64,000 nucleotides of DNA from Rhizaria sp. SCN 62-66 (lineage: Eukaryota), in NCBI GenBank assembly GCA_001724265.1, contig MEDY01000205.1:1-64000 (forward strand). The letters are read 5' to 3'. The notes beneath the pieces were generated by a model, which made no database searches, was not told the origin of the DNA, and worked only from the letters and a program-made list of their open reading frames with translations. Position numbers and translations under genes: made by a program. Positions 479 to 53,514 of the stretch are shown one piece after another (within the stretch, counting starts at the first letter, position 1; each line of letters begins with the position of its first letter).

Positions 479-2197
479 ATGGATTTTTCACAATAGCTTA
501 ATGTTGTAGTTGCACAGCTGCGCTCAGGTGACATCTCTGGTGGCACTCTGGCACTCAAAGACCTCTACACCCCGATCTGGCTCGAGTATACGCAATACAC
601 CGCGCTTGTCAGCGTCCCGGATATCACTCCTCTTCTTGTCTCCGCTCGACAGCTAGGACTAAGCAACAAATCTGACGGCGGCACGCTTGTCAATGCCGCC
701 GCTAGCTTGCTGGCCTTTGCGTCGCGCGCCCCTCAGGGCTGCGAGCTTCTCGCTAGTTGCAAGCATCTGTTCAAGCCTCTCTGCCAGTTGATTTCCATCG
801 ACCAGTCCCACGACACGCTCGACTTCACGCTTCTGATCGCCTCCAACCTTCTGCAGAGCACTTTTACCGCAGAGGTGAACCGTGAGCTCGACGCGCACAA
901 CGCTCGCCCCAAGCTCGTTTCACTCTTAAGTGCCATCGTAACTACACACCTCCCGGCAGACAGCGTAACCACTGCCGCGGCGGCCTCCGCGCTCGCCGCA
1001 ATCGCCGCAGCGGACCGCGCCCAGCCGCCCGCTGCTGCCACCACTGACTCATGCTGCTATTTTTTGACTGACAACGCTTGTGACGACTCTTCTTCTCCGG
1101 CGCTGACGAGTGACTAGCTTGCCTGGGCGACGACTCTTGACCACTTGTGCACGATTTTCACCGCGCAAATCACTGTCAATCCCCGCGCTTATCGCCCCGA
1201 CGAGCTGACCCCGTTGCTGCGAAACGTGCTTCCGCGCTACACGTTCTGTCGCGTTGTCCTGCCCGTTGGTTACTTCCCCGCGCGCTGCATGCTGACACTT
1301 AATGCACTGTGCTGCGCCAACAGCAATGTTTGCGCTGTTGATAGTGCGACCACCGTGTCATCGCCGTCGCCCGCGGCCGAGCTTGCGCTAAGTGCCGAGT
1401 TTGAGTGCGTCCTCTGCCACATCCTCGCGCAGAGGCCGCTGACTAAGAACGCTTTGGAGCTGCTTGCCACCGTGACGCGCTGCTGCGACGCTGCAGTGCT
1501 CGAGAGAGTCTTCACAACTCCACGCTTGGCGCGCCTCGCTGGGTTTTACGACGGATTTCACGAGAAAAAACATCACGAGCTTTTCTTTCAAGCACTGGGA
1601 CAGCTTGTCGAAGCGTCGTCTACGCTGCGTGACCGTGTGTGCGAGGCCAAGATCCTCGAGCGCTGTCTCGCGCACGCCGCGCCGGTTGTTGATGGCAACA
1701 ACAGCAGCGCCAGTGATAAGGATCGCTATTTTCAGACTTGTCTCCTGGCGTCTCAACTAGCTCTATCTGCCGGTACATTCCTGTCGCGTTTGCTGCGGAT
1801 CGCTGACGACAAGCCGGCAATGGCGCGGCGGCAGTTTGATGCAGGCGCAGTGCGGCTGTACACGCGCGCGCTGTCGGTCGTTGCGCAGGGCCACGGCAGC
1901 GCGGCGGGCATCGGATGCGCGCTGGCGGGGCTGCAGCAGCTGATTGAGCAGGGGGACACCGAGCCCGACCCGCGAGGTGCGCGGGCCGCGGAAAGCGCGC
2001 CGCCGCCGCGCAACGCGTTTGCGGGCGCGTTTCTTACCTCAGGGGGGCGGGAGATGCTCGAGACGCTCCACCGGGCCCCGCGCATCAAGGAGGGAGCGAG
2101 CGAGGAGCTGGAGAGCCTGCGCGCGCTGCTGATCAAGATGGCTGTGATCCGCAGCAAGCGGCCGCAGGGCGTGCAGCCGCGCGTGAAAGCTACGTAA
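479..2197 (+). CDS. Divergent importin-alpha-like armadillo-repeat protein (~572 aa; in-frame TAG at 494-496 and 1115-1117 read as sense)
   Basis: ATG 479 (preceded by in-frame TAA at 419), ORF 707..1117 and ORF 1145..2197 are all in one frame, separated only by TAG; ends TAA. Importin-alpha-like segments: LVNAAASLLAFAS (cf. QFEAAWALTNIAS), FFQALGQLVEASSTLRDRV (cf. WALGNIAGDS..CRD.V), LAGLQQLIEQG...NAFAGAFLTSGGREMLETL (cf. LEGLENILK.G...N.....IEE.GGLDKIE.L). Confidence 0.7.
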
Positions 2198-14800: not shown

Positions 14801-16901
14801 GCGTCTCAAGCGAAAAGCTCCACAAGTCGTTGAAAAAGGCCTGGAGCTCGGCGATTGCCTTCCGCTCAGAGAGAGGCATTGTCGCGCCGCCCGCGAGCCA
14901 GAGGAGGCGCGTGACGGGGTCGTACGCCAGCGCCGCGGAGTGGCGGGCCGCGGGACGCAGCATGGGGTAGCGCTGTCCGATCGCGAGGCCGCTTTCCTCG
15001 TTGTTCGGCAGCCCGGCGGGGAGGTTCTCCAAACCGGGGTCGCCGTGCAGCAGCGTCGTGGTGTTGCCGACGACGTCAAACATCCACAGATCGGACAGCA
15101 ACGGCGGGATGTCGGCCGGGGACGTGTCTGGCGTGACGGCCATTCCGCCGAACCAGAACACGAGCTGCCCCGAGGTCACCGGGCTGACCCCGCCTATCAC
15201 GGGCGCCGCGGCGGGGGACGTGGCGATCGCGTGCAGAGTGCGGGGGCGCACGCGCGGGGCGGGCGTGGCGGGCGAAGAGTCCAGCGCCATGAAGGGCTGC
15301 AGTGTGTGTGACGCCAGCCGAGGCGGGACAGAGTTCTTGTCTTCCGGGGTGATGGTAAAGGACCGCTGCGCGGCGAATTTGCCCTGCCAGTTGAACGTGG
15401 TGGCCGCGATGGGGCGCGCCCTCGAGACCGGGGGCAGCAGGGAAGGAGAGACGGACGGCGTCCCCACTGCGGGCGCGATCAAATCAACGTCAGTTTCGAA
15501 GAAACCGTCCGCGTTGACTGTAATCCCAGAGGGCGGGCTCGGGAGATAGATCATAAGCCGCGCGCGTGCGTATTGATTCGGCAGCTGCGTGCCATGTAGC
15601 GAGAGCGTTTCACCGCGGAAAACGCACTGGCCGGTGGTGAAAAGCGAGTCGAGTGGGGCCGCGCCGTCCCAGGTGACCGTGAGCGCCTGGGGCTCGGTGG
15701 CCGTGGGCACGGCCTTGATGGCGCAGTACGAGCCGGGGTTGCCGCGGTAAAACAAGCCGTTGCTGTCCGTCAGTGAGAGTGTGAGAAGTGACGGAGTATT
15801 GCCACGTACGCCGAACTTCGTGCCTGTCCAGGACACGTTGCCGGCGACCGTGGGCGTGATGGTCTCATTGAGCATGCTCTCGATCACTGTGCGGACGGGG
15901 TCTGCGATTCGCGTGCCTGTGGCGAGCGTCAAGGCGAACGAGAACGCCCTTTCTGTCATCGAAGTGGTCTCGGTGACGGCGCGCCAAGGCGTCTCGCAGG
16001 TGATCATGGCGCCAATGCCTGGTACGGCGTCGGTGGGGGCGGCAAAGTTCATGACGAGCAGTGTGCCATTAGAGCTCCCGTCACGGGTGAGGACCACCTC
16101 CAAACCGCTGTCCAGCGTGAGAGAACACGTGGGAGTTCCGCTGAAGAGGAAGAATGGGTTCGTGTCGATCATCAGCAAAGGCTGGGCGTTGCCGGGGACG
16201 CCGAGCCAGCTGGAGAAGGTGAATCGCATCGACATGGTCGTCGAGGCCTTGCGCTGGTACCGGTCAGCGTAACGGAAAATGCCGCCGTGCGGGAAATCGA
16301 TCGTCGCGTTGGCGGGGGTGAAGGCCGGGCTGCTGATGTTCAAGACGGTGGCGTTGGGCCATGTCAGCCGCGCGGCGAGCCCGCCGACGGACATTGCCGA
16401 TGTGAACGGCGAGACGACGGCAGAGCAAACCAAAGTGACAGGTGCAATCCAGACTCCGCTGTATCGCAAGGTGACGACTTCAGCGTCTGTGGTGGGGGTG
16501 CCGATGATGGTGGAGACGGGCGCGGAGGAGGAGATGCATGCACAGCGCTGGAGTGTGGATGGGATGATAGACGGCACAGCACTTTCATTGTCGACGTGGA
16601 AGATCTCGAGCTTTATCTCGTCATGTTGAGCCGCGTTGAGACCAGAGATGGCGAGCTGGATTTCGATGAAGGAGAGACGCTTCGGGAACTCAGTGGTCAC
16701 GGTGAGATCGTACGCGGCGGAAACACCGTTGCATGCAACTGTGAGAAGCAGGAATGCGGCTGAAAGTGCGAGACTCAGAAGCGAACCAACACGATGCCCC
16801 TTTTGCCGCTGATGTTGACGCCACTGCTGCCAGTCCTGCTGCTGCTGCTGCTGCTGCTGGGGCTGGTAAGCGCCCAGGCGTGGCGGCGACGACGAAAACA
16901 T
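2814..16901 (-). CDS. Giant polycystin-1/REJ-like cell-surface receptor (~4,695 aa): kelch repeats, EGF-like domains, REJ module, GAIN/GPS, 5 TM helices, Pro-rich tail
   Basis: Single uninterrupted ORF ending TAA. Likely start at ATG 16901 (MFSSSPP...), followed by hydrophobic signal LLSLALSAAFLLLTVACNGVSA. Many kelch blades (hhhFGG...DLW.F). EGF-like Cys clusters at ~12690-12800 and ~10890-11170. REJ-like region ~6540-8280. GPS motif CEWWD...WSTKGC...CQCTHLTLF at ~5124-5250. Five hydrophobic segments at ~3990-5030, including the PKD1-family HLWLSV...RVT motif. Confidence 0.88.
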   Translation of the reverse strand: MFSSSPPRLGAYQPQQQQQQQQDWQQWRQHQRQKGHRVGSLLSLALSAAFLLLTVACNGVSAAYDLTVTTEFPKRLSFIEIQLAISGLNAAQHDEIKLEIFHVDNESAVPSIIPSTLQRCACISSSAPVSTIIGTPTTDAEVVTLRYSGVWIAPVTLVCSAVVSPFTSAMSVGGLAARLTWPNATVLNISSPAFTPANATIDFPHGGIFRYADRYQRKASTTMSMRFTFSSWLGVPGNAQPLLMIDTNPFFLFSGTPTCSLTLDSGLEVVLTRDGSSNGTLLVMNFAAPTDAVPGIGAMITCETPWRAVTETTSMTERAFSFALTLATGTRIADPVRTVIESMLNETITPTVAGNVSWTGTKFGVRGNTPSLLTLSLTDSNGLFYRGNPGSYCAIKAVPTATEPQALTVTWDGAAPLDSLFTTGQCVFRGETLSLHGTQLPNQYARARLMIYLPSPPSGITVNADGFFETDVDLIAPAVGTPSVSPSLLPPVSRARPIAATTFNWQGKFAAQRSFTITPEDKNSVPPRLASHTLQPFMALDSSPATPAPRVRPRTLHAIATSPAAAPVIGGVSPVTSGQLVFWFGGMAVTPDTSPADIPPLLSDLWMFDVVGNTTTLLHGDPGLENLPAGLPNNEESGLAIGQRYPMLRPAARHSAALAYDPVTRLLWLAGGATMPLSERKAIAELQAFFNDLWSFSLETRQWAWHHGVTYAKVRPATGGALTPFPPMAGASLAAYDNQLVLFGGLVMPTKMQHTGRNAYFEMDHVYDIRISGDSVDLYLRTNESVGYTIATAPEFAIPSVGRESHNGPGAMAYAAMSIELYNHQAGIFKAIVFGGARLPPAAVDGDIPYISNAADRRLDSSLHGGLWRLEIQNGILSWTWIDSPAVRGAANGRGIPRIALSQDAALEHPGGRVFHAMNVAPNGDIVVFGGRGHAAGYYITRAGLRPESLSLAQTVALAPFTLPIVGRFNAPTEQNAVGLHAFVYTEAELTTAGIDFNAPLNSLEVLLKLSRYSAVPEWYESASFRVHALLQFVDFSEINEAKHTPAWLETMAVAARAHGNAVTFNPNVWETDSFLSLSSATRDNGLPAATPVVGTRNLLLFLHIEYLFTFFSPDLNTFQQFAVDMEAQDANTSLSYIRGGVPVANTDVVGPWLRYQQRPVLLLRSRMPASLQTLPPVSRDIFGSPQLDDLWVFERSTAFWKLVYGFATPLARTALPLSNNASRALLASNPGHWLGARLQPVLAIPTTTDVAVDSKALVATLFIHGGYSLHPTWADDIRSMSAVATGEATALFEYNRYLGLDDLWSVDLVSICTDSTAPQAATCVGTSPRIMHTELEITPIPGSSLYTQYFAYPGAHNGALFETQGNMCPTTSSCNATTGTCVPGAGGYYCSCKPYRTGGTCSGAGETERRRVLTPAHATGISDTFLTHVQLPFSAVAVHPADGRVWTYGGIAVDGAMASSTVYSRLSSVSFALQNYREIETLSGVTDFIHFDSGMVPTLDGPKYFTAAQPPPSHDALAWFSVDGETLYVYMESFVAPPGIWAFAVANKTWQTAGPNHLLSDFPVSGAYSALHTGHGNFSANNHPGSRQHFGRAASATRACIYSGEQVNYPGRGDGINTDLWCVLNDNTPSSLQWALMSGYPDLPSGEYMPIFGAPGEFGALYNPGPRVGASLAFSADGGDEVLYLFGGSLYCSTGMTSIPRPAYMADLWVFDFFRNQWAYLSGPTTWATTVSAHRADRRETAGAPSRLQWPGARAAASMAAAADGLLYISDGVGLREDGLSAPLQSTFAVFARQLHDIFWQSNDYQWAPEHEEGTAVAAWIWIDELNNTREPAAFSWSNFVRSPILGGQMTFIPSSLASRDTGYARPASLMVRTTGLRQLSEPPMATEIYPFAATQSYTVHDMPISLGTDSCRNNPCANGGTCQLCRDLVNNCTGALDAGQGASFYACRCPAGYFGQHCELTRYTYAPPSAIRGIPCRNGALPNNVSISAPCACQTDATDPLCSPLRAAAIVQSNGSSILTASRIHTANAVAHGLSSIAAGMLGFPQNDTVLFGGGGAESINRHFLAGTIAAVSYATRAAVIVHQPPNGADSTSVFTGTAVSIGSYYGAALVFAPTVDRLFLHGGIYYTGELMMARDVYDRLWRLWPSQQSVAPQPEILTPAPARTTARIPPTLVGSVDVDNMTGHARRSDGVYPTGSPGARAFHSMAAITISGVEYVYLYGGMKPSVDGLQYLADIWRFRTRDSGSITWEYIGCAVTVPNFISLSSPLNTTKSLKDFCPSARARTQMLTVGTELWVIGGVGAAGALDDIWVFNAEFETWTLRAGSSVKSTGTVTAPNFATLPYTMGSRYGHSCDVLPTAGSAIVCYGGLTAQGASVDLFRRITPVMLSRSVYYPSAGALDVLPPFYPHDTDKAWLATEVPRELLTSVGLEDGLQLRSLTLYFALPVDAYFGAMFRVNARLAFVSDWVNDLYSVAATASTSMDTTPTSWATDGTTLTLTFSGTFAVMDAPHVSLVVIIETVPIAGSFNREREHLAWASPSENVANDQFVAFTSIRSRNTLVGGTNGKVWQTDLRPQLRFSVLPDASADGVAAANDMFSINTTTFGIAQLAGASTATSASLAGAKLAYGAGNSIARGDPVIESLEANRAVEWQGALLDLEAEDATESQFAMQMTPSALVGHLFAVLPTGAGLPQRYMTMGGYWTLEAPLDASDDWNGHHLLLNRNFPFSGGTDAFTVANKYLFYGGARGKYTAPAPPAQPFPMPTIARFTPSMSSVELLFEAPTQQPRSTTPASEANCNIVLSGFSNHSPGSGVQCAWSTPSTFTIMLGASFTVRAGDEVIIKGGVIRTGSTLAENATALYLPETHMIVMLPDTMTTPVPVVTGPARLGVCDALSLSSVASANSGGLAFAHTWHSDGDDFALQDYITRTYGLRDDGKPFLSDSSPYYIPTLSVPLGEDLNDILPPGGTVKFTLELQSWYGQTATTSITVSRAYSELPQIAIAGSKTLSVVPTRNVLVNALISRVSLCEGATVGTNISYIWTQVGETGVEFVGNLASLRVRAYAMPPRVAPYVFRVNVTDVTGNTPYTNSDEVSITVTASALRAVISGGGKVHSASKELVLSAALSRDPDVNPAGGTSQYDGLTYLWSCVDASNAAQPCFANGTFTNLSSVEVRFASSFLESADVLTTVMLFSVTVSKGSERAPVTVSARVDLTIDDPEYSVAVSSPGRSQILQQNPIVMTAVVARLSAGDPAATERYRPRVLWSCDTRNANLNEAGLILFQAASPASDGSGGLVYTLALSGEKLVPGVAYTFRLSLFPNNGTVLPTQAEIQDLPVAALPGELVSSYASFSINSPPRSGSCAPVFAANVTEARSNVPFTLRCSGWEDDVEDLPLTYHWYAESKRVLRGAVKSNWVEIGMALPQPSLEATLRAGHAVDGYARAIEVYITDIWGAQTRVEVEVPFEAPASADPAEGEITTGAVPKLFSTLAADGATAEDIEALFATLTDAVTVSDIAAVSQSTLRITDALEDAAVSVTAAGKTAFRARLLEAIRGVAEMLTISQDARRAAAALVDSEGSSAETEQDHNQFSQNAGYSEVAIELLTQLCADGTQLDRATRTQALHTLVVQTSSLASRDAFLGMSTATADSALVATQVVIDAFAAELAALNHNTSLPVAGSAASNTTEGAELLALKQEAAGVVNAIAQQMNVLAMGSLAQQAVGQAATSLVFGGISVVSQAIATLHAPDAIEARMPTESEGEPVTARVTLPPSLQHLNASALQVVMAMVEDSALFHLAGMATESYLNGSQSSPLLAFTVFNRTLANVTDVAVGDGVTVPVQEHISFNLGGSGAYYDAGRPFAMLAAAEDEYFTLEVPHAKPTWPDVSFTCEWWDANANGVGGKWSTKGCKLVSVSSTNTTTTCQCTHLTLFRVRLDLNHFLPKFNTLDVNDFKNLTWSNIKAHPLPLITCGVWFVAYLFFAFVAAMIDRRMDARALRHYHGEWSDPQRKQWDAVTGDTSASLPSTARRNPDHGVEKMAFMERWIDLLRHLLKHDHLWLSVLIRYDTNAFSSVGRVTAGFVLVLTGYMINALFFGSADGSVSFSTIVTSVISAAILIPVGILISLLFGRSQQGRLKSAIYGYAEHVAQLQYTNRISEPQYATRNEHRMKRNPVISDEDERVLLHSIAQAGGWTHGPGNALIPENARGVRDERELRNQLRLLVHIDYDLFMVWFRESWSFPLGVRLFGFVLLWIYVIVLVLLILVYGVQLDMKKNDNTKQWLQASAISNVLEIFIFKPISICVKAFVLIILSHCFCGGKPKGPASKSTPDDNLTVYSAIEMFAGSGAGRGHKHVAADLALDTVHTGGAGNGNNNDNDGAVAVRVASGPHGPYGPHSSSGSGDPYSSNDSFTGSPFGATALQGSSSGWNALPANSPANSPAAVEMEMTPIGRSAATAYQAATAYQAVGSAPSSPAQPVAPRLPAVPSAPYPAPYTVGNGTEDDHYYGGDTADYAPVAPPAPSSAVVMPPPPPVPSAPAAPAPDAPVYASPSPAPSPAPSPTQDTYATHTGPPVPAPPPPLPPLASTSARTSAAPPPIPPAHAYNTQPPQQYGSAAGAHTATHDPSRAPAIPALPAPTGGVPIMGTRSALAYQEREASASVAGRSNNNNNNSNNGNGEQSGAQTSLRAPMPLPSHIKPEYHRQE

Positions 16902-17592
16902 CGAGCCGGAAAAGACTAGAGAGCGAGTGGTCTCGTCTGCTCTGCGCTTCAGGGTTGACGTTGACGGCCAAGTAAAAATGACTTCAGGGGAGTGAGAGGA
17001 AAGGGGTACTTCACCCGCTGGAGGTGTGTAGATAACAAAAAAGAAGATATGGGTGCAGTATGAGCTAGGTGACGGAGTGTACACGCTTTGTAATATGGCT
17101 TCGAAACGAAAACATGGGATTGTGGTCAAAGAAAATGTTGATGGAAAGAATTGCCTGTCATGCCGAAGCGAGGTTAGACTGACATTCACGTATAGCTCAA
17201 AAAGGAGCGAGTGGTCGCTAAGCTCGGCGCGTGCAGTCATAAATCGTGAATATCACCTAAACGACAATACCAAACACATAATATTTTGTCCGCTCACGAT
17301 GCAGGACGCGGGGAACACTCACTCGAAAACGCCGCCCCTCCTTGTCGGTGAGCGTACGTCGCGGTTTGCGGCGCGCTGGTCGAAAAAAAAAGATGGCGCT
17401 CAAAAAAGTGACCGTGACGTGAGACTTTAATTTCCGCCCGGATCGTGAGAGAGAGAGGAGCCCCAAAGGAGGACCAAGCTGAGGCTATTTCGGAACTTAT
17501 GTTGCTTCATTCGCATTGCTGCTTTTTTGTCTGGATAGTATCTCATGTTTTATTTTTATTTTGTTTGTTCCCTTTCTCTCCCTGACGGTTAG

Positions 17593-20708: not shown

Positions 20709-21863
20709 TTAGTTATGCCCGTCGAAGTCACCCTCAAATTCTGCAATGACCAGCCCACGGAACTTATCCCCGTCCTTAGTACGGCAGGCGTCATACAGCC
20801 GGCGCAACGTGACCACAAACGGCCCGTAGTCGGCGTTCACGTCCGACACGAGCGCAACGGCAGGCGTGTCTAGCGTGGCGATGATGGGAGACCAGTGGCC
20901 GCCGATAAGCGCGCGCGCACGGCCCCAGGCTGAGGTCGGCGCGGTGCCAAACAGAGGCTGACGGAGGAAATTCGCAGCGACGCGCACGTTGGGGCGGTTA
21001 GCCTTGGCGATGAGAGCGCAAAAGGCGTCGAAATTGACTGTAGCGCCGTCAACAGGCACGGATTCGACCGACTTCAGCGAAACGCCCGCAGGTAAGAGCC
21101 CGACCGAGCGCGCGACTGCCTCGTGGAGCTGTTTTAACGTCGCTGGACCGGGCATGCGGCGGGTAGGAACGATGGCGGCGCGCGAGATGGAGTAGAGCAA
21201 GGTGTTGACGGTGGCGGGGGCGCAGTAGCCCTCGACGGGCTGGTAGAAGGTGCACTCTTCGACGCGGTCCCAGGGTCCCAGCGGCGCAATACGACGGTCG
21301 ACCGAGTCCGGATCAGGGGCCTCACCCGCGGTGGCGGCGGAGCGCGCGGCGGCAAGAGCGCCCCGGGCGGCGTCGGCGTCAACTAAGCCGCTTTGCTGCG
21401 CGTGGGTAAGCAGGGCAGCGCGGTACGGAGAGGCGGACCACAGACGCCAGATAAGGGCGGAGTCTTTAAACTCGGGGGCGTCGCGGATAACGGGGCGTGT
21501 GGCGTTAAACTCGTGGCCAACCTCGCGGCTGGCGATGTTGCGGACCATGTTCTGGTAGCCGGAGTACGCGAGATAGATCGATAACGCGGCCGGGATGAGG
21601 ATGGTAAGGTTCAACCACCAGCACAGGACAATGTAGCTGAGGACAAAAAGGCCGATAGCGCGGCCGAACATCATGAAGGTAAAGAAAATGGGCCAGATGA
21701 CCTTGTAGGCCTTGGGAAAGAGGTGCTTGTGCTCCACCGGCGCGCGGCCGGCGTCGATGATACGGGTGTTCGTCACCGGCAACAGAGGTTGGAGTTGGAC
21801 CTTGGTGTAGCTGAAGCTCTTCGGACTCAACGGCTCGTCGCCGGTGGCCGCGGGGGAACTCAT
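20709..21863 (-). CDS. Phytochelatin-synthase-like (papain-fold) protein with N-terminal transmembrane helices (384 aa)
   Basis: Motifs YQPVEGYCAPAT (Cys codon 21222-21224), ANFLRQPLFG...GGHWSPI (His 20895-20897), LVSDVN..YGPF.V...RLY.A..T.D...RG (Asp 20841-20843) match the PCS catalytic-domain pattern. Hydrophobic stretch at ~aa 55-103. Ends TAA. Confidence 0.8.
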   Translation of the reverse strand: MSSPAATGDEPLSPKSFSYTKVQLQPLLPVTNTRIIDAGRAPVEHKHLFPKAYKVIWPIFFTFMMFGRAIGLFVLSYIVLCWWLNLTILIPAALSIYLAYSGYQNMVRNIASREVGHEFNATRPVIRDAPEFKDSALIWRLWSASPYRAALLTHAQQSGLVDADAARGALAAARSAATAGEAPDPDSVDRRIAPLGPWDRVEECTFYQPVEGYCAPATVNTLLYSISRAAIVPTRRMPGPATLKQLHEAVARSVGLLPAGVSLKSVESVPVDGATVNFDAFCALIAKANRPNVRVAANFLRQPLFGTAPTSAWGRARALIGGHWSPIIATLDTPAVALVSDVNADYGPFVVTLRRLYDACRTKDGDKFRGLVIAEFEGDFDGHN

Positions 21864-22388
21864 GGCTGCGTGCGGATACGCCGCAAAACAGAGAAATCAG
21901 GAGAGTGTGAGTGTGAGTGTGAGTGTGAATGGGAGTTAGGAAAGCGGGAGGGTCTGGGGGTGCGGTTCTGACCGAGGTTCGGCAGAGATAAAAGCAAGGC
22001 AAGAACGGATCAGAGAAACGTATGAATTTAAGAGCAAACACAAAAAGTTGAGATATTGCAGATTGGTAAGTTGTGGCTCATTTGACGAACAGAGAGCTGT
22101 GTTTGAGCAGCGTCTGAGTCGCCGTTCATTCGCCGAACCACAAGTGCGTAGTGGCGACGTGGGCCGATCGGCGTCATCCTCAAGCAAGGTGACTAATCAT
22201 GCCATAGAGCGTTGCAACGGACTTCCGAGATGAAATAAAGCGGCATAACGCTAGAATAAAGAACCATATACTGTATTATTGTCTTCATAGACAATACTGG
22301 CCCCATCACACGACCTAAAATACTCCCAAAGAAACAAAGAGCGACTTGACAGCTTATATCAATCTTACCCAAGGACACCAAACCCACT

Positions 22389-28514: not shown

Positions 28515-28978
28515 ACGTTTTCTTGATGATTGCTACCTGGCTTGTGCGTGTGTGTGTTTTTCTCTTTCTTTTTCAGTCTTTCTGCCGTTGTGTATGTGTG
28601 TGTGTGTGTTGTTGTTTTTTCCCTTTTGTTTTGATTACGACTGACATTTGTTTTTGCGCTATCTGATCAGAGTCGAGTCGAATCAATATCATCAATCACA
28701 TCAACAACCCCAATTATAACTAGAGACAGTGCTTTGTCATTTTCTTCTTGTCAAGAATCATTTTGCGCAACACACCAGCTTTCCTTGTTTTATTCCAATA
28801 CTACTAATAATACATACTCTCTACATTTATATAATACAAACGTACACAATTCTCATTTTGTATTTGCCATTTCAGATAACATCTCGCTAAATATCATTGC
28901 ACGCACAACTAGTAGCATGGTCTTTTTGATTTCAACTTAGCTTTTGGATTTAAGCAGCTTTTTCTTGTTTTGTTAAGC

Positions 28979-30189
28979 TTACAAGAGACGCGGCTTCTTT
29001 TTGAACCGGTTCGCAGTAACTGTGGCGCGCGCAAGCCTATCGCGCTCCGCCAGCCGAATAGCCTCCGCCTCAGCGTTCGCCAGTGCAGCCGCCTCCGCCG
29101 CCGCGGCTTCGGCCGCAGCAGCAGCAGCCGCGGCTGCTGCGGCGGCGGCAGCGGCAGCGGCAGCGCGCTCCTGCTGCCCCAGAGCGCTATTGCCAGCACA
29201 ATTTGCACCGGCACGACTCCCGCTACTGCTGCTGCTGCTGCTGTTGTCGTTATTATTTCTGGAATTGTCGACGCTATTGAACCCCATCATGCTGTCGTTG
29301 AACGGATCGTTGTTAAAATCATCATTGTTGTTATTATTCTGATCATAATCGTCGTCATAATCGTCGTCGTCATAGTAATCTTGGCTGTTTTTGCCCAGTC
29401 CGCGCTTGCGGCTGCGATCTGACCTCGCACTTTCCCCTTTACTCCCTTTAACACCACTGCGCGTGGTCCTATTAGCATCCCTATCGTCGTCGTCGTCGCT
29501 CTCGTCGCTGTCACCGCCGCCATCGGCGCTGATTTTGCCGTTGTTACCGCCGCCACCGCCGCCATCCGCGTCTTTGTCGACTCCAGAGTCTAAACACCGC
29601 CGCTGCCGACTGCGGGCGACGCTCCGCACCGCCACCGCGACCGCATTCACCGCCGGACCCAGTGCGCCGCCGCGGCGGGCTGCCTCAGAGCACAGCCTCT
29701 GAGCCTGCTCCACGGGGCCTTGCTGTGCCTGCAACGTGCGGGCATGGTTCCGAAGCTACTTCCGCGCCGCGTTTGACAGAGTCGCACTCGCTGAGTTGGC
29801 AGCGTTGGATTTGGTCGAGGGCGTTGCGGTCGCAGTTTTGGTCTGACCGGAAAAGTTGCCTTTCCTCTCAACAGTGACGTCAATCGCATTGCTATCATCA
29901 TCATCATCGTCGTCATCGTAATCGTTCTCGTCGGTCAGCATGCCCAAATTGCCGGTGACTGCCACGATCGCGGCGTTGGCCGTCGAGAGCACCACCGCGG
30001 CTGCGGCGGTAGCGGTGTCGGCCGCTTCCGTCGCCGCGGCGGCGGAGGCGCGCAGAGGCGTCCATAACAGCAGACGCAGCGCCAAAGCGGCGGCGGCGGG
30101 CGCGAGGGGCGCGCAACGAAAGCCCCACGTAATACCACCTCCGCCACCGCCACCGCCGCCGCCACTGCTGCTGCTGCTGCTGCTGTTGC

Positions 30190-30229
<40 letters not shown>

Positions 30230-32080
30230 GGTATTTGTGTTTGTGGTGGCGAGGGGCCGCGAAGAGGCGCACAGTGACAGAACCGACTGGGAAGCATCGT
30301 TATCGATGCCACCAAGGCCGAGCCCAGAGCCGGAGCTAGAGCTAGGATTAAAGCTAGAGCCAGATGCAAGGCGATTACTGCTGTTGCAGTTGCTGCTACC
30401 GCGATCGTCGCTGGCACTGTCGACGCTGCTGACGCTCTCGGTGGCGAAAGAGTAAAGCCTCTCAACGGAACTCACATTGCTACTGTTACCACTACTCGCA
30501 ATGCTGCTGCTGCTGCTGTTGTTGTTGTTGGTGCTCGAAGGATTACTCCCGCCCGCGGCAGTCAGACCGAGGCGCGACGGCGGGGGGAACAGGGCGCTGC
30601 GGATGCTGCGAATAATCGCGTCCGCGGGCGTGTTTGACGGCGTCGCCGGCATGTAAACACCACGTTCGATTGATAGCACTGAGGCGCGGCAGCGACGTAG
30701 CCAAACACGCTCTAGGTCAGTCACCAGCAACAAATACCCACTGTTACCACTCGCATTACCACCGCTGCCGCTGCTGGCGCTGTGACCAGGAGTGTTGTTT
30801 TTGATGTTTTTGAATGCGACGAATTTGGCAAGTAGAGTCTGGCGCAAGGGAGGGAAATCGCAGAGGCCGCGGCGGCGCTCTCGGATCGCCACGCCGCGGG
30901 CAGCCGCCTCCGCGACGACAGCGGAGACGGCTGCAGAGGTCGTATCACTGCTGGCTCCCATAGCCGCAGTGAGGTTGTTGCCGTTATCGTTCGCGTTGCT
31001 GTTGTTGTTGTCACTGCTGTTGTTGTTGTTGCTGCTAAAAATGGCGGCGGCTGCAAGAGCGTCTGCTGCGGCTACAGCCTCAGGCCACAGCGTCACAACA
31101 CACTCAGAAAGAATCCCACTGGCACTGGCGATGGCACTGGCGCTGGCACTTGCATCGTTTTCGCAGTCGGCGGCATGCAAAGTGACCGTTTTGGTCAGCC
31201 CCGGTTGCGCCAGCGCCAGCGTGCGCGCCAGTGCCGGCGAGACCTCATCGACGCCCCGTTGCGCGGGCGGGACGGGCCCGCGGAGCCACTGCGCGGCGCG
31301 CGGGGCCCAGTAGGCGCGCGCGGCGGCGGAGGCGGCGGCGGTGCCAGAGGCGAGCGCGCGTAAAGCGGCGGCGTCGTCCAAACTCTGAGAGAAACTCGCA
31401 CCTGCTTCCATGTCATTCATTGCGCTCGCACACGCAGTTGCAGCCGCAGTCGAGCTAGAGCTAGAGCTGGAGTTAGAGTTAGAATGAGCCGCTGGAGGAA
31501 TAGTACTCGCGCTGTTATTGTTATTGCTGTTGCTATTGTGAGTAGATATGTCGTTAAAGAGGCCGCCAGCGTCGTCGTCTGCAAAAAAGGCGTCCAAGTC
31601 GTCGTTCATTGCAGTCTTTTGCGCCGCCGAGAGGTGTGTGTGGTTGTTATCATCATTCACCGCCGCCGCGAAATGAGCGGACGAATCGTTACTTGGGTCA
31701 ACGTCGGCACTCGGAGCATTCTCCGCCGCTGCTAAGCTTTGCTGCTGCTGTTTGGCGGCGGCAGCGGCTGCAGTGGCGGCTGCGGCGGCGGCGCGGGCGG
31801 CGGCGCGCTCGGCAGCAGCTTCGATAGCAACAGCGGCGGCAACGGCTCCTTCAGTAGGCGGGGCAGTGCACAGTAATGACAGCTGCTCCTCAGCCTTTCC
31901 CCCGCCGCCGCCGCGGTAGTGGATCGCGGGCAGGCGCGGGAGGCGGAGGCGTTCGCCGGTGGCCGGGACGTCACGGGCGTGGCTGCCGAGAGCGAGGGAT
32001 AGAGACGGGGTGAAGTAGCTCGGCAGCTCCACCCACGCGACTGCGGAGAAGAGCCGCAGCTCCTCGGGGGTCAAACTCAT
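28979..32080 (-). CDS. NHEJ1: XLF/Cernunnos-like non-homologous end-joining factor with large low-complexity insertions (~1,033 aa; in-frame TAG at 29756-29758 read as sense)
   Basis: XLF motifs in the expected order: AWVELP (cf. AWLQL), LLAKF (LLAKV), GYLLLVTDLERVW (GYALLVSDLQQVW), WGFRCAP (WNFHC), LLLWTPL (HLIRPL). ORF 28979..29734 is in the same frame beyond one TAG and ends KKKPRLL-TAA, resembling the XLF C-terminal Ku-binding motif (human KRKKPRGLFS). Confidence 0.78.
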
Positions 32081-32461: not shown

Positions 32462-34528
32462 ATGCAGCGCTTTCCCGCCGCTGCAGCTCCTCCCACGGCT
32501 GTCCCGCCCCCTGGCACAGCGATGGCCGACGGCACATCGGGCTCCCAGCAGCAGCAGCAGCAGTCTCAACAACAGCCGTTTGATAAGCGGCTGGTTGCCG
32601 CTAATGCCCGCGCAGAGCTGGAGGCTATCTTGGCCAAGGACGCGTTCGGCGGACGCGATGAGATGCACGTTTGGGAGAAGGCGCTCGACAAGACATGGGA
32701 TAAGATCACCGTACGTCAGTCTATCAGTCGCAATTCTATAGCGACACACGTTATTGGACACTGTCTATGTTATGACTTTTCAATTACAAAACTCGTAGAT
32801 TCTGCATCAAACTAAGATAAAACTTGACTAAAGTACACCAATCGCTATAATCTCACCAATTACGTTTTATTTTGCTTCTTTATGTATATTATACCTTTCT
32901 AACTGTCTTAACAACAGGACTCGCTCGCCGCGCGCGCCGACCCAGCAACTTTGCTATCTCTCGCGCGCGCCCGCAAGCAGGCGCTCGACGCGCGCTGCCA
33001 CACCGCCGCAGCCGAGCGTGACATGATCGTCCAAAAGGGTCTTTTGCGCAACTTGGTCGTCATCATGGACTGGAGCGCTTCCAGCGACACCACGGACTAC
33101 CGCCCTTCTCGCCGCGCTGTCGTCAAAGCCGCCGTCGACACTCTGATCCGTGAGTTTTTCGACCAAAACCCCGTCTCGAGCCTCGCACTTATCGCCGCCT
33201 ATAACGTCACCGCTGTGCGGGTGTCCGCGCTCTCAGGCTCCCCGGGCGTCCACACCGCCGCACTCGACAACCCCGAAACGGACTCCTTCCACGGCGGCGA
33301 CTTCTCGCTGCGGAACGCGCTGCACCTCGCGCTCGGGGCACTCCATGCCGTGCCGAGCCACTGCACGCGCGAAGTGCTGCTCTGCGCGTCCGCGCTGTTC
33401 ACCACCGACGCGGACGACATCGAGGACTCGATCGCGGCGCTCGTGCGGGCGCGCGTCCGCGTGTCGATCGTCGGCGCCGGGGCCGCTGTACACGTGTACT
33501 CGCGGGTCGCCGTCGCCACAGGCGGGACGTACACCGTCGCGCTGAACGCGGAGCACTACCGGGCGGAGATCATGCGGCGGGTGGAGCCGTCAGCAGTGCT
33601 CGACACATCACTCCTCCCCCCCTTACCCAACCTTGGCTCGGGCTCTGGCTCTGTGGCTGCGGCGGCGGCCGCGGGGGCGGTGGCGGGAAGGCAATGGGTG
33701 CAAATGGGGTTCCCAGAACGCACAACCGCGAGTTCCGAGCGGCTTTTGTTCTGCGCGTGCCACCTGAAGCCCGTCACCGCTGCCCACGAGTGCCCCCGCT
33801 GCTCTACTATGGTGTGCGAACTCCCCTTCGAGTGCCCCGTGTGCCGTCTCTCGCTGGCCTCAGCGCCGCACTTGGCGCGCTCGTACCACCATTTGTACCC
33901 GTTGCCGGTGTTTGTTGACGTGTCGCACGCTGTTTCGCGCACGAACTCGCTCAAAGCCGCCGCCAAAGCTGCCGCCACTTCCGCCGCTAAGTCCGCCGCC
34001 GCCGCCACCGCCGCCGCTGCCGCCGCCGCGACCGCATCAGGTAGTAATGGCAGTGGCGTTACTGCAGCCGCGGTTTCTTCTTCTGCTGCAGGGGGGCTGA
34101 GGCAGCGCACGGTGCGGGGAATGGGGGCCGCCGTCTGCTTTGGCTGCCAACGGCTGGTGACGCCCGGGCTAGGAGAACTCGTGACCGCGTGTCCCGCGTG
34201 CGGCGGCGTGTTTTGCGCGGCGTGCGACGAGTTTGCGCACGCTGCGCTGCACAACTGCCCGGCGTGCTTGGCTAAGGCTGAGCGGGCGCCGGCATCTGAC
34301 ACAGAGGATGCCGCCGACGACGACGACGATGATGATGATGGAGATGGCAATGACGAGAGTGAGCGTAAGAGCAATACCGACTCCAGGACGAGTGCGAATG
34401 TCAACGTCAGTGCCAAAGCCAGCGCCGCTGCGGGTGCGAGTACGAGTGCGGGGGCGGGGGCTGCTATGGGTGATGGGGACGAGGAAGTTAAGCCGGAGCC
34501 CAAGGTGAAGATTGAGGGTGCAAAGTGA
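32462..34528 (+). CDS. GTF2H2: TFIIH subunit p44/Ssl1 (exons 32462-32710, 32918-34528; alternative ATG at 32522)
   Basis: WE....KTW motif in exon 1. vWA domain GLLRNLVVIMDWS...DYRPSR...EFFDQNPVS. C4 zinc finger CPRC..VCELP.ECPVC.L.L.SAPHLARSYHHLYP. C-terminal CFGC...C..C...FC..CD.F.H..LHNCP. Phase-0 intron 32711-32917 (GTACGT...ctaac...CAG). Ends TGA. Confidence 0.95.
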
Positions 34529-36214: not shown

Positions 36215-39200
36215 ATGTCCGCCCCCGTCTTCCCAGCGCAGCAGAACGCGCTCGGTCACAACACACCGGGTGGCAGTCTTGCCGCTGCGGCAGTTGCGGA
36301 CGTTATCTCGACCCTTCAGGCTTCTTTATCCGAGCGCGACGCTGAGCTGAACGAGACAGCAGACGCCTTGGCTTCGGCTGAGGAGGGTCTCGCGGCCGCG
36401 CGCGCCGAAGCCGAGGCCGCCTCCGCCGCCGCCGCCGACCTGCAAACCCAGATGGCGGCCGCGTACGACGCGTTGCAGGACGCCGATGACAGCGCCGCGG
36501 CTCTCAAATCCCGCGCAGAGGCTGCTGAAGCGCGTGTGAACGATCTCGAGTCTTCCGCGACTGTGACGGCTGCGACGCTGGACGCTTTGCAGTCCCGCGC
36601 CGCCGCCGCCGACACGCGCGCCGCCGCCGCCGAGGCGCGCTCGGCCGCAACCGAGCATCAAACCGCCTCTGCAGTGGCCTCCGCAGTGGCCGCCGCGAGG
36701 GATGATGAGCGGGAGCGTTCTCGCACCGCAGCCGCCGCCGCTGCCGCTGCGACCGCCGCCGCCAAGGCTGAGGCTGCCGCTGCTAAGGCCGAGGCTGCGG
36801 AGGCCGTCGCCGTCGCCCGCCGCGAGGCAGCGCGCGCCGCCGCCGCCGAGACCGCCGCCGCCGCCGCCACGGCCGCCGCAGCCGCTATTGAGCGCGCTGC
36901 CGCGGATAAGTCCGCCCGCGCGGCCGCTGCTGTCACCGCCGCCGAGGCGTCCGCCGCCGCCGCCAAGGCCGAGGCCGCCGCCGCCGTCCGCGCGGCGACT
37001 GATGACGCCACGACCGCGGTCCGCCGCGCGCGCGCCGAGGCCGAAGCCGCGTTAAGTGAAGCCGCGGCGGCGCGGCGCGTAGGCGACGACCAGGCGGCTA
37101 AACTTACGCGCACCGAGGCCGATGTTGCGAGGCTTTCTGACCAGTTGGCCGCGGCCCGCAACGCGCTGGCGGCCGCAGGGGAGCGTGCTGAGGGAGCTGA
37201 GGCCGCTGCTGCGCGCGCGCGGGCTGCCGCGGCCGCCGCCGCCGACGACGCCGCCGCCGCTGACCGCAAGCGCGCCGCTGCCGAGGCCGCTGTGGCCGCC
37301 GCGAGGCAGAGCGCTGCGGAGGCTCGCTGTGCCGCCGAGGCCGCGGCCAGCGATCGTGATGCCGCTGCGCGGGAGCGGGAAACGGCTGCCGCGGCCGCTG
37401 AGCTGGCGGGGCATGAGGCCCGGGACTGGCAGGCGCGGCTCCGGGGAAGTTAGGCCGCGGCCGCCGCTGCGTTGGACGCCGAGGCCTGCAAGCACGCCGC
37501 CGAGCTGGCCGCCGCAGAAGCCCACGCCGACCGAGCGCGTGCCGAGGCTGAGGCGAGGGCTGAGACCGGCATCGCCGCCGCTGAGGCCGCCGCGGCTCGG
37601 GACCAAGCTGCTCTCTTGGCCGAAGCTGAGGCGCGCGTCACTGCCGCCAAACAGGCCACGGCGGCCGTGGAGAGTCTCCTCGCCGCCGCACAGGCGGAGA
37701 CGGCAGCCATGCGCGCTGAAGTGCTCACAGCGCAGGCCCGCGCCGCCGCTGCGGGCGAGACGGCCGCCGCGGCGGGCGCCGAGGCGCGCGCTCTGGCGGC
37801 AGAGCTCGGAGTCGCCCGTGACGCCCGCGCCGGCGCCGAGGCCCGCGAACAGCTCGCTTTGACTGCGCTTGACACCGCGCGCGCCGACGCCACGGCCGCG
37901 GGGGCGCAGGCGCGGGCTGAGTTAGCTGCGGCGACTGCGGCTGCTGGCCAGGAGCAGCGTGCCTCAGCCGCGCGCGCGCACGCTGCCGTCGAGCACGCGT
38001 TACTCCGCGCGCGCACCGCCGAAGAGGAAGCCGCCGCGCTCAAGTCCCGGCTGCAGCGGGCCGCGGAGGACGCCCGCGAGCGCGCCGCCGCCGCCGAAGC
38101 CGCGGTTCGCGCTGAGCTCGCTGCCCGAGAGCGGGCGTGCGCAGAGGAGTTGCGCGCCGCTGTCGCTGACGCCCGGCGTGAGGGCGAGGCAGCCGCGGCG
38201 CGCGCGCGGGCCGAGGCCGCGGCGGAGGGCGAGCGTGCGCTGACGGCCGCGCGGCGGCTGAGGGAGGAAGACGCGGCGCGGCATGCTAACGAGCTGGCTC
38301 TCGCGCGCGCCGCTGCCGCCGCTGCGGAGGCGAACGCGCGCGCGACCGGGGAGCGCGAGGCCGCCGCGGCGCGTCTGCGGGGTGACGGGGCCCTCTCTGC
38401 GGCGGGCGCGGCACACGCGCGCGAAATCACGGACCTCAGGCGTGCGCAACAAGAGGAAACGCGCGGGCTGCGAGACGCGTTGGCGCGCGCTGAGGCCGCC
38501 GCGGACGCCCGTGCCGATGCTGCCAAGAGGGCTGCGCAGGAGGCGGCGGCGGCGGAGATCTCGCGTATTATCGCGCAGGTCACTGCAGCTCAGCGCGCGC
38601 GGGCGGCTGAGCTACGCGCGGCCGCGTCGGCGGACATCGGCGCCGCCGCCGCCCTCGCCGCCGAGGCTGAGGCGCGCGCGCGGGCCGCCGCGGCCGCTGG
38701 GAACGGGCGGGTTGCTGCTGCTGAAGCTCGGGCTGCCGCGGCCGAGGCCCGCGCTGTCGCGGCTGAGGCCCGCGCTGCCGCGGTTGCGGCGGAGGCGGAG
38801 CGCGCGGCGGGCGAATCTCTGGCGGCGTTTGCGCTGGCGGACAGGGCGGGGCGCGCGGCCGAGGCGCTGGCGGGAGAAGTCGAGCGGCTTGAAGCTGCTG
38901 CTGCGGCGGCGGCGGCTCGGGAGCGCGGCGGCGCGCTAAGGGCCGAGGCGGCGGCACAATGCGTGCAGCGCAAGGGGCAGAGCATGCTGCTGGGCGCGGC
39001 CGAGTCCGCCTTTGCTGCTGCCACAGCCGCTACAGCTGCTACCACGGCTGTTGACACTCTGCACTCTGACGATGAGGCAACTAGTCATGGCCCCTGTGAC
39101 CGTGATGCTGCTGTGGCGTCAGTGGCTCCGTGTTAGAGTGGTAGAAGCTTCGTTTTCAACAATAACTACATCAACAGCACCAACAGCAGCAGCAGCAACA

Positions 39201-43315: not shown

Positions 43316-46009
43316 ATGTCTGCGAGCCCCCGCAAGAAAGCGGCTCCGTCGTCCAGCGGCGGTCCCAACGTCGAGGCCGAAGCCAAGGCCGCAGGCGCCG
43401 CTGCAGCGCGGAAGATCAAGATGAAGCCCGTCCCCACGGAGGACGACCTTGCCAAGGCGCGCCTGCAGCTTGTACGCGCCCAAGAGCAGAGCAAACACCT
43501 CGCGCGTCTTGTGCAAGAGAACCTCGCTTTGAAGGACATTTCAAGCGAAATCGGCGCCGCGCTGCACACTCAGGTCGCCACCCAGACCTCTATCCTGGCC
43601 GACCTGGACTCCGAGCTTACATCGACTGACAGCGAGGTCGTCTCCACGCAGCAGCACATCGAGGCGCTCATGCGCCAGCGCGAGAACATGCACGCAGCGC
43701 ACGAGACCCGCATGTCATCCCGCCGCGAGCGCCACGCCCAGGCGATCGCGGGTCTTCTGTCTGATCTCAACGATCAACGCGCGCTCTTTGCCGCTAACGC
43801 GGACCTGCGCGCGGAGAAGAAGGCGCTGTACGAGGCGCTCGATGTCGCATCCGCCGAGGCTGCGCGCGCGCGGCACTCGCACCACGTGACGGTCAGCGAC
43901 CGTGAGCACCTGTGCTTGCTCGAGAAGGCGACGCTGCGCCGCGGCATGCTGTCGAAGCTCGCGTCCACCAAGCTTGGGCTGCTGGGCAAGGTCGGCCACC
44001 AGCTGCACACCACGACGCGCCGCGTCACGCTGGAGCACCAGCAGGCGGCGCTCGAGGTCGCCTACCAGTCCGCCGTCGTGGAGAGGGACACGGCGCACTG
44101 CGACCGCGCAGAGACTCGTCTGAGGGCGTTACGGCGCGCGGCTGAGCTCGACCTGCAGGCGCTGGCGATGGCCAAGGACCGCGAGGCTGCGGTGCAGCGA
44201 AGGCTCGCCAAGGAGGCCGTTGTTCTGGCGGCTCTGCAGCGCATGGCTGTAACGCACGACCTAAAAAGCTATAGTGCCTATAAGAAGAACGGTAAGAAGC
44301 TTCCCGCATCCCAGCAACAACAGCAGCAGCGCAGTGCAAATGCGAGCAATGAGCGCAGCGGCGTTAGTAGCGCGAATGGCGATGCGAGTGCGAGCGGCGG
44401 CGGTGGCGCTGGTGGTGGTGTTTCAGATCAGATGTGGCGTGACGTTGGCGAAAGCTTGAATCTCTCGCAGTCAGTCATCAGCAACAACAACAACACCAAT
44501 AGCAGTAACAACCATGGCGACAGCGCTCACGGTCACACTGCCGCCCAGAGTCAGCTGCTTGCGCCGAGTCAATCTCAGACGCTCACAGTCACTCTCGGCC
44601 CCACCACAAACGATTCCTCGACTGCTGACCACCACCATCACTACAACAACAACAACAGCAACAGCAATAGCAATACGGACAGCAGCGGTGACTATTCTGC
44701 CGGCTCACAGTCATTCCGTGGTCTCACAGTCACTGCCAGCAGCGGCAGTAATCCCTCCCATAACAACAACAACAGCAACAAAAACAGTAGTGTTGCGAAC
44801 AACATCAACACTGCGGCGGTGGTCCCCATCAGTGCACGCCGTGTCTCTGCCACTTCCTACGGCTCCGGCGCGGTTGCGACCGCAGGCGTGTTCTCGAAGG
44901 CGAAACTAGCGCGGTGTCCGTACGGGTCGGACGGTGCGCGCCGAATCAACGCCTCGGTCGCCGCAAATACCAACCTGCACCCTCTCGCATCTGTCAACTC
45001 TTACAACAACAATAACAACGCTGCTGTCCAGAACACGATGAATGCTGCTGCGAGCCTGAACGCCGCGAGTGCTAATTCTGCAATGCGCATCGGTAGCGCG
45101 ACCATCGCAGCGACGCCCGCCACCGCAGCCGCAGCCGCTGCCGCCTCTGCTTCCACTGCCATCACCGGCGGCGGCGGCGCAGGACGCGGCAGCAACAGCA
45201 GCACGAGCGGGCTAGCCGGGGTCACGCGCGCTCTCCAGGCCGAGACCGTGACCGTGGCGGGGGAGCTCCGCGCGCTGCTGGAGGCGACGGCGCAGGCGCG
45301 CGGCACGGCGGCGCGGGCGCACGAGGGCGCTCAGAGGCTGCTGCGGCTGCAGTAGGACTCGCTCCGGCTGCTCGAGCTGGCGATGGGTGACGCGTACGCG
45401 CAAGGAGCCGCCGCCGCCGCAGCAGCAGCAGCGGCAGCGGCGCAGACTGGGGGCGATGCTGGGGGCAGCAGCAGGGTCAATGGGGGGGCAGCTGCGGCTC
45501 TCGGGGGACTGGACGGGGCCATTCAACGGGCGGCCGCGGGCGAGCCCGTTTGGCCGCACTCGCACACACACGGACTCGTTTCCACTGCGCGCAACCACAA
45601 CAACAGCAACAACAACGGCGATGACACTCCGAACAACAACAATCTCAGCAACAGCAGTAGTGGTCGCCGGAGTGGTGGCGGTGATAGCCGCGATGCTGAG
45701 GCGGAGGGCGAGGAGTTCGAGGCTGAGCTTGACCGTGCCGTCGCGGCCCCGTTTGACCTCTCTTGGCCCGCGCGCGCCGCCCTCCTGGCCTCCACTGGCG
45801 AAGCCGCCGGAACCGACAGCGGGAGCAGCGATGCCACGACGATGGCGATTATGAGTGAGCGTTCTCTATTGCCCTGGCCGCTCAAACGCGGCGTCCCACC
45901 TAAGCTCTCGATGGTGCGGTTCGGAGACGCCCTGGCGTTGCTGGCGCTACTGTACCATAAGCTGGACGCGACACCGGCGCCCGCGCCGATCAAACGCTCT
46001 GTCGTCTAA
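43316..46009 (+). CDS. CFAP157: Cilia- and flagella-associated protein 157-like coiled-coil protein (~897 aa; in-frame TAG at 45353-45355 read as sense)
   Basis: LEKATLRRGMLSKLASTK...QLHTTTRRVTLEHQQAALEVAYQS matches the CFAP157 core as I recall it (EK.RL+KEM..KI..TK....QL..TT+RTI.EN.Q...EL.YQS). ORF 45383..46009 continues in the same frame across one TAG lying inside an amphipathic helix (RLLRLQ*DSLRLLELAM). Ends TAA. Confidence 0.75.
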
Positions 46010-52255: not shown

Positions 52256-53417
52256 AGGCGGGGAGAAGAGACGCTTGCGGGAAGTGTCGTTGTTGGTCGC
52301 CTCAGCGTTGTCTGCCATGAAAGTAAACGCAGCATTCGTGTTCAAGCTCGTGTTCGCTAAGATCGCGCCAGCGTGTGTGTCAGCCTTCGTCTCATCGTCG
52401 GACTTTGGTGCGAGATTCAGCGTCAGCTCTGAGCTCATTGACGTGAACGCGAACGTCGCCGACGAGAGCCACGACCACGGCTGGAACACATCGGCCACAA
52501 ACGCGCTGCGGGCGAAACGGCTGTTTTGCGCACAGTCGTCGGCGTTGGTGTTGCAGTCCATCCACAGCAGAGGGTGTCGCGGGTCAACGGCTCTTGCGCG
52601 ACGCCACTGGGGCTTGAAAGACTGCGTCGACAGTGCAAGCTTGCGCTGAGTCGAACTCAGCGTCGCAGCTGCACTTGCACTCGAGCTCTCACTGGAGTTG
52701 CTGCTGTTCTTCGCGTCGATACAGTCTGAGTCATCGCTTTGCGAGAGAACATCGAGGCCGAACGCTGCGCGTGTGCGCTCGAGCTCTTCGGCGACCATCG
52801 CGCGGAACACCGCCGCGGCCTCAGCGCGCGCGGCGACAGCTACGTCGCTCGAAGTCGGCCCCAGCGGACCGGCTGCGAACCGCGGCAAGTAGGAGTGTTC
52901 CTGCGACTTGTGGACGTACATCGGAGCAGAGATCGCGTAGGGTTTCGGGAGGAGAGGTGCGACAGGAACCACCGGCACGCAGAGCGATGCGACGCGGCCG
53001 TAGAAAGGAGAATCGGTCGCACCGACAGTTGCCTTGGCGAGAGCGTTCGTGTTGTGCTTGTTGATGACCGAAACTGCGTCGTTGTAGGCAGTGATACGCG
53101 AACTCGTCGTTGCCAGCGGTGGAGTCGTCGCTTCCGCCGCGGCAGCGTCCTTTAAAAGCGCGCTACCCCATGGCGTCTTAGTGATATCGGTCCCCACGTT
53201 ACGCACGGACTCGGACAGCGCGCTGGCGTCCCAACCGGCGCGCGCCGTCACTGTCAACAGCGCGGGCCGCAGCCGCGACAGGGCGCGCAGGCGCGCGCTC
53301 AGCAGCCACGCCTGGCGGCGCACGGCCACGGGAGTCGTGCGCAGCAGCTCAGTGACGGCGGCGGCGACGGCGCGGGCGCTCTCGCTCGGAGTGCTCTTGC
53401 TAGCTGAGGCGTCGATG

Positions 53418-53514
<97 letters not shown>

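Follow-up and report, generated by a model that had tools for sequence, protein, structure and literature searches.

Does the lone TAG inside an XLF-like gene on contig MEDY01000205.1 of Rhizaria sp. SCN 62-66 (assembly GCA_001724265.1) end the protein, or is it read as an amino acid? We analysed positions 1 to 64,000 of this contig, hereafter the window, in which the gene lies in a minus-strand frame (32305-28979) whose single in-frame TAG (29758-29756) directly follows the residues ...NAARK. In our judgement, at a probability of roughly 0.84, this genome follows a variant of the nuclear code that assigns UAG to glutamate and keeps UAA and UGA as stops, and the organism is a long-branched cercozoan (Rhizaria). 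The TAG of the XLF-like gene is then probably not a defect and instead one instance of a genome-wide code change. What is seen in the DNA is that UAG is missing from gene ends and lies inside conserved domains, that a tRNA gene with a CUA anticodon exists, and that stop-reading residues of the release factor eRF1 are changed.

The in-frame TAG and the segment beyond it

Past the TAG the frame stays open for 258 codons and closes with NRFKKKPRLL and a TAA at 28981-28979. A preliminary description made from the sequence alone had reported this layout, and its coordinates proved exact. The TAG was also found in a DNA run from another study (X3), one contig of which covers 29176-30129 with 0 differences, so the triplet is real and not an assembly error. 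If UAG is read through, the gene comprises 1033 codons plus stop (28979..32080, minus strand) from an inferred start ATG at 32080, and the TAG (29756..29758) is codon 775. The gene is probably intronless and carries long low-complexity insertions. Its post-TAG segment (28982..29755) consists of about 60 ordinary residues, a low-complexity linker rich in acidic residues, Asn and Gly, a poly-Ala helix and a basic tail.

The genome is GC-rich, and the open frame alone is weak evidence because the six frames of the window contain 43 stop-free stretches of at least 258 codons. Codon use is more telling, being coding-like past the TAG until the TAA. The codon model was trained on 46,335 codons, 1,033 of them from the XLF-like gene itself. 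Its score was negative in 25 of the 43 stretches, the post-TAG segment being the least negative (-0.013 per codon), and for that segment it came to -3.4 in frame, whereas the five remaining frames gave -13 to -262. Scored in blocks of 43 codons, the sequence past the TAG ranged from -13.6 to +3.8, and values of -35 and -54 appeared only past the TAA. This collapse marks the TAA (28979..28981) as the true stop of the gene. Contigs of a poly(A) run (X6), whose library may contain DNA, lie at 28778-29082 and 29375-29627, both past the TAG.

Use of TAG across the genome

Besides the XLF-like frame, three frames in the window are interrupted solely by TAG, all on the plus strand. One has its TAG at 1115..1117 (frame 500-2197), another at 45353..45355 in a coiled-coil gene (frame 43319-46009), and a 1633-codon frame without TAA or TGA has four, the first at 37451..37453 and the others at 39134, 39353 and 39755. 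The codon is rare, making up less than 1% of Glu codons: 14 window frames with 17,498 codons hold 7 TAG, 574 GAG and 146 GAA, the training set of the codon model has 8 TAG in 46,335 codons, and frames of 4812 and 3566 codons have none.

To the window we added a sample of about 0.93 Mb from the assembly, which totals 34.9 Mb; part of this sample was selected for the conserved domains in it. Among 111 gene ends inferred with the codon model and a splice-donor filter, 63 were TAA, 48 were TGA and none was TAG, although 20% of all stop triplets in the background sequence downstream are TAG (binomial p 1e-11). Every TAG that followed a coding-like run read on as coding (15/15), compared with 0/111 for TAA and TGA. 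With an earlier, looser filter, 9 of 16 TAGs continued as coding, 5 did not and 2 were unclear; the non-continuing TAGs of a still looser list mostly look intronic, antisense or untranslated.

Profile searches overstate the number of internal TAGs. Twelve such sites were dropped as intron acceptors or intronic on inspection, one of them a site at which a paralogue had seemed to speak for Glu, and nine colinear sites within Pfam domains remain. A TAG in L131 that resembled a terminator was rejected as intronic. The dynein genes examined contained no internal TAG, and profile searches for ABC, AAA and WD40 domains returned no match containing one.

The residue probably specified by UAG

The residue is most likely Glu, judging from the summed domain scores, the eRF1 alignment and the tRNA described below. 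The in-frame TAG of eRF1, present also in a second assembly (L145) that is identical across 1626 bases, aligns without gaps to human Glu107, and among 120 homologues this column holds E in 112, D in 7, V in 1 and Q in 0. When seven residues were substituted at the nine internal sites, Glu gave the best sum of Pfam bits (E 559.1, Q 555.2, K 554.0, S 548.9, Y 541.2, L 538.3, W 535.9). At the TAG in a kinase hinge, Glu scored 47.0 bits versus 44.6 for Gln, a margin of 2.4; a PDB search for this kinase gave no match at E 1e-12. The TAG of an SUV3 helicase gene stands opposite an Asp of the human protein.

A tRNA gene with a CUA anticodon

One tRNA gene with a CUA anticodon was found (G000:C84; Rfam 58 bits). 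Compared with 27 anticodon types of the organism's own tRNAs, a set that lacks Phe and Pro and from which four long intron-bearing calls were left out as spurious, it matched Glu(CUC) best, with a score of 34.0, 47 of 73 bases equal, no gap and the first five acceptor pairs identical. Other scores were 25.7 for His, 24.9 for Glu(UUC), 14.9 for Gln(CUG) and 8.8 for Gln(UUG). In minimum-energy folding only the acceptor and anticodon stems formed (z -1.5). A pattern search, which would miss intron-bearing genes, yielded no tRNA with a UUA anticodon, and its stem-forming hits read as Thr, Pro and Lys. A tRNA-Tyr(GUA) gene containing a short intron lies at L008 2709-2793 on the minus strand.

Changes in eRF1

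A single copy of eRF1 was found in the genome. It carries T32S and G57S at positions that are invariant in 120/120 homologues, and T58K at one that is Thr in 119/120, the sole Lys belonging to its closest relative, P0006. Further changes relative to the 120 homologues are L124M and K130Q, and E55, NIKS and Y125 are retained. Thr32 bonds the G of UAG, and Iotanema, in which UAG is Gln, has T32G (PMC5304391); the standard-code relatives of Iotanema retain the GTS motif (PMC9161772). G57 has been cited as a class-specific site (PMC4698671), and T32A is lethal in yeast (PMC4381064). A preprint on an eRF1 screen names, in the passages searched, no equivalent of T32, G57 or T58.

These elements suggest how UAG could have changed meaning. 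The CUA tRNA would have been derived from tRNA-Glu(CUC) and would be charged with Glu. With T32S and the neighbouring G57S and T58K, eRF1 would largely have lost its grip on a third-position G, and because of that loss the CUA tRNA would win at UAG. UAA would remain a stop because an anticodon with C34 does not pair with it. The XLF-like gene would then be an ordinary full-length gene, with Glu at codon 775 and the basic tail made. That UAG is translated, as the preliminary description had proposed from this one gene, is thus well supported, through genome-wide evidence that lay outside that reader's data.

The P0006 eRF1 is 84% identical and has T58K, but T32 and G57 are unchanged in it and position 107 is Val; its state possibly represents an earlier stage. 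P0006 and P0130 (GRP94, 86%) are the closest relatives found, and they need not be one organism.

The UAG at eRF1 codon 107 might also have a regulatory role. Bacterial RF2 is autoregulated through a stop codon, and, if the reassignment here were young and still incomplete, this UAG could act as a eukaryotic counterpart, a feedback switch. Plentiful eRF1 would terminate its own synthesis at the UAG, and when eRF1 is scarce the single-copy CUA tRNA would read through. The codon is very rare, yet one stands within the stop-reading domain of eRF1, which speaks for such a switch, as do the residues of the P0006 eRF1 at positions 32, 57, 58 and 107. At one TAG per 2,500-5,800 codons, however, a gene of 440 codons would contain one by chance in about 7-16% of cases, and we regard the switch as unlikely.

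Alternative explanations and points against a Glu code

Several observations weigh against the Glu code proposed here, and some concern the residue. Glu is the top residue at five of the nine domain sites and within 0.4 bit of the top at the rest, its sum is only 3.9 bits above that of Gln, and only eRF1 107 and the kinase hinge separate the two residues well. One TAG falls in a ubiquitin-like domain, at a position that is Gln in the ubiquitins of this organism, and several lie within poly-Gln runs. The CUA tRNA is single-copy and differs from tRNA-Glu(CUC) at 26 bases. Its U1-A72 and G73 are bacterial Gln determinants, and bacterial amber suppressors often take Gln (PMC9976931). The table of that review, in the portion available, does not list eukaryotic identity elements for Glu and Gln, so that Glu charging of the tRNA remains an inference. 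UAG might accordingly be a sense codon for Gln, the meaning it has in Iotanema and some ciliates, or be ambiguous between Glu and Gln through a mischarged CUA tRNA. We regard this as improbable, given that Gln occurs in none of the 120 homologues at eRF1 107, that the kinase hinge prefers Glu, and that the body of the CUA tRNA resembles the organism's own Glu tRNAs and not its Gln tRNAs. TAGs at tolerant Gln sites, moreover, would be expected under either code because CAG to TAG is a transition.

Other observations concern how consistently UAG is read. The sample covers about 2.7% of the assembly and is not random. Two TAGs near gene ends are ambiguous, one gene ending TAG-TAA and another having a TAG 16 codons before its TGA. 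UAG could have a dual meaning, being Glu within genes but a stop at certain gene ends or for a fraction of the ribosomes that reach it; the rarity of the codon would fit slow or leaky decoding, and T32S is milder than T32G. TAG closes none of the 111 inferred ends, however, and a one-copy tRNA together with GC-rich codon bias could account for the rarity. We consider such ambiguous, leaky decoding quite improbable. DNA patterns for TAG at the Glu codons of Walker-B and APE motifs found no true site, with 1 and 3 matches versus 3 and 1 in controls; three of the matches, on inspection, lay outside such genes and the fourth had an in-frame TGA. None of the RNA contigs searched spans the TAG at 29756, and one depth-2 contig of the poly(A) run has two single-base gaps, at 29661 and 29666. 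The genome, finally, seems to have been assembled from a metagenome. Tetramer use in the contigs of the tRNA and of eRF1 agrees with that of the window (r 0.95 and 0.91, median 0.93), which falls short of proving that they were binned together rightly.

Under the standard code the TAG would genuinely terminate the protein, represent a nonsense allele, belong to an intron or be changed by editing. The 12 in-domain TAGs that turned out to be intron acceptors or intronic would suit this explanation, as would the frequency of long chance open frames. So would the strain variants in the XLF-like gene, which are 4 synonymous and 7 non-synonymous and lack a purifying signal (this count omits 3 of 14 substitutions, one in an untranslated region and two in repeat-matching contigs). 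We nevertheless consider it highly improbable. The TAGs of the eRF1, kinase, E2 and helicase genes are colinear with homologues, so that no intron fits, and the sole eRF1 found would be cut within its first domain. Four checked introns have a GC content of 0.33-0.52, whereas the 300 bases around the XLF-like TAG have 0.59-0.71 and the in-frame GT-AG candidates across it at least 0.60. Trp, the product of adenosine-to-inosine editing, has the worst residue score, and the CUA tRNA exists.

Comparison with known codes

UAA and UAG nearly always mean the same, and research into the reasons draws on the small number of nuclear codes in which they differ. We know of no NCBI table that assigns UAG to Glu and retains both UAA and UGA as stops. 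Our literature survey, which left most subscription journals outside its scope, found no such code in the portions of papers available, and none in a cercozoan. According to these sources, UAG-only changes have given Leu (rhizarian exLh, some ciliates), Gln (Iotanema, ciliates) and Ser (Scotinosphaera), and UAG = Glu is known only alongside UAA = Lys (PMC10553269) or UAA = Glu (PMC11687900).

The closest parallel in meaning is Oligohymenophorea sp. PL0344, in which UAG is also Glu and the CUA tRNAs are closest to tRNA-Glu; it is, however, a ciliate in which UAA is Lys, only UGA stops translation and there are 10 CUA tRNA genes (PMC10553269), whereas in the present genome UAA is the commonest stop and the search yielded a single CUA tRNA. 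In peritrichs and Blastocrithidia the new meaning is likewise Glu, but it is shared by UAA and UAG, and Blastocrithidia uses all three stops as sense codons. The phyllopharyngean ciliates, Protocruzia tuzeti and Scotinosphaera have UAG as sense and keep UAA as a stop, the residue being Leu, Gln or Ser and not Glu (PMC11687900). Iotanema spirale, a fornicate, shares the reassignment of UAG alone and a change at Thr32 of the eRF1 GTS motif (PMC5304391, PMC9161772), but there UAG is Gln and the change is T32G, compared with T32S, G57S and T58K here. The rhizarian exLh also has UAG as sense with UAA and UGA as stops, but its UAG is Leu and its eRF1 motifs are conserved, with L69A (PMC5304391). Because Leu scores 21 bits below Glu here, the present change is likely to be an event independent of exLh.

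If the code is as proposed, Rhizaria would contain two different code changes, that of exLh and this one. One genome would combine the pattern of codon use with a tRNA descended from tRNA-Glu and an eRF1 altered at Thr32 and at two neighbouring residues. It would permit a direct test of how eRF1 distinguishes UAG from UAA, with a bearing on amber suppression in engineered cells. Standard annotation would truncate this organism's genes, including eRF1.

Identity of the XLF-like protein

The gene product is probably XLF, although the formal Pfam test failed. The whole protein gave no Pfam match. A 59-residue piece, however, matched only PF09302 (XLF), at 18.3 bits (E 0.003) and below the curated cut-off of 24.6 bits, and a 103-residue piece likewise matched PF09302 only, at 17.5 bits. 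The match (30590..30745, minus strand) covers part of the N-terminal head domain of XLF, namely positions 22-75 of a profile with 115. With the 59-residue piece as query, human XLF chains made up all five PDB matches (E 0.2-0.4), and an Atlas search returned XLF/XRCC4 clusters at 0.80, a value at lead level only. XLF is thus the family of best similarity. The N-terminal XLF match that the preliminary description relied on holds insofar as no other family was matched and falls short insofar as it lies under the cut-off. Homologue searches with the head piece returned one spurious repeat protein and otherwise nothing, and genome searches for XLF and XRCC4 were blank, as were their controls.

Helices predicted past the head piece (29933..30106, minus strand) likely form the dimer coiled coil. 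They come from a single-sequence model with a local confidence (predicted local distance difference test, pLDDT) of 45-64, which is low; the model as a whole is poor (mean pLDDT 44.8), and the placement of this helix relative to the coiled coil of human XLF is one that we presume. The helix precedes the TAG, so that the earlier statement that stopping there would delete much of the coiled coil finds no support in this low-confidence model.

The C-terminal NRFKKKPRLL (28982..29011, minus strand) resembles the basic motifs that end XLF (VKRKKPRGLFS) and PAXX (FKSKKPAGGVDFDET); a Phe that follows the basic patch is described as conserved (Grundy 2016, PMC4831024). The basic run, the Pro and the Arg of the human XLF motif are present, as KKKPR within the last 7 residues, but the conserved terminal Phe is absent: the tail ends in LL, and a Phe precedes the patch, as in PAXX, whose motif FKSKKP it also resembles. 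The description of the tail as an XLF Ku-binding motif is thus borne out for the basic run, Pro and Arg and not for the Phe. The tail is unusual in the genome, the pattern [KR]2+P[KR] occurring in the last 12 residues of none of 111 other inferred gene ends. The genome also has Ku70-like and Ku80-like genes, the latter with a first exon of 17 codons. In sum, the protein resembles XLF/NHEJ1 (PF09302) and PAXX in its weak head-domain match, the helix behind the head and the basic C-terminal motif, and differs from XLF/NHEJ1 in its length (1033 residues with large low-complexity insertions, versus 299), the missing terminal Phe and the sub-threshold score. The argument from XLF for UAG translation is therefore only suggestive.

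The XLF-like gene stands head to head with a TFIIH p44/Ssl1 gene (32462-34528, plus strand), about 380 bases separating the inferred starts. Both are DNA-repair genes, and they may share a promoter.

The organism and other features

In a GRP94 tree (a single gene, with 63 of 120 hits kept) the sequence falls, with a support of 0.99, in a clade with Paulinella and two chlorarachniophytes, Norrisiella and Bigelowiella, on a long branch of unnamed sequences. This placement indicates that the organism is a long-branched cercozoan. There was no named sainouroid among the hits. The protist is uncultured, and the runs in which its DNA occurs bear the labels bioreactor, wastewater and activated sludge.

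The ubiquitin genes (L117, L120, L121 and L124) are divergent and begin with MSMQIF, and several single monomers have a short tail past GG. This start recalls the insertion between ubiquitin monomers described in Rhizaria (PMC12930898), although no polyubiquitin monomer junction was seen in the assembled ubiquitin genes. L146 (G000:C706, 1501-5945) carries an 18S rRNA gene that is divergent and rich in AT and contains four group I introns; a His-Me homing endonuclease of 176 codons (PF05551, E 3e-14) is encoded within the first insertion. This contig is unlike the window in composition and is only a candidate for the same organism.

Within the window, the 4812-codon stop-free frame (2817-17252, minus strand), which has no TAG, encodes a polycystin- or adhesion-receptor-like protein with Kelch repeats, REJ and GPS. 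The 3566-codon stop-free frame (53302-64000, minus strand) has a ubiquitin hydrolase domain and long low-complexity sequence and extends beyond the window end. A phytochelatin-synthase-like domain just below the cut-off (PF05023, E 4e-5) was detected at 20712-21896 on the minus strand. Elsewhere, L119 (G000:C681, 1-2085) contains a frame with a duplicated region that matches no known domain, a ubiquitin-like domain, a Peptidase_S74 domain and in-frame TAGs, and this frame may belong to a virus-like or mobile element.
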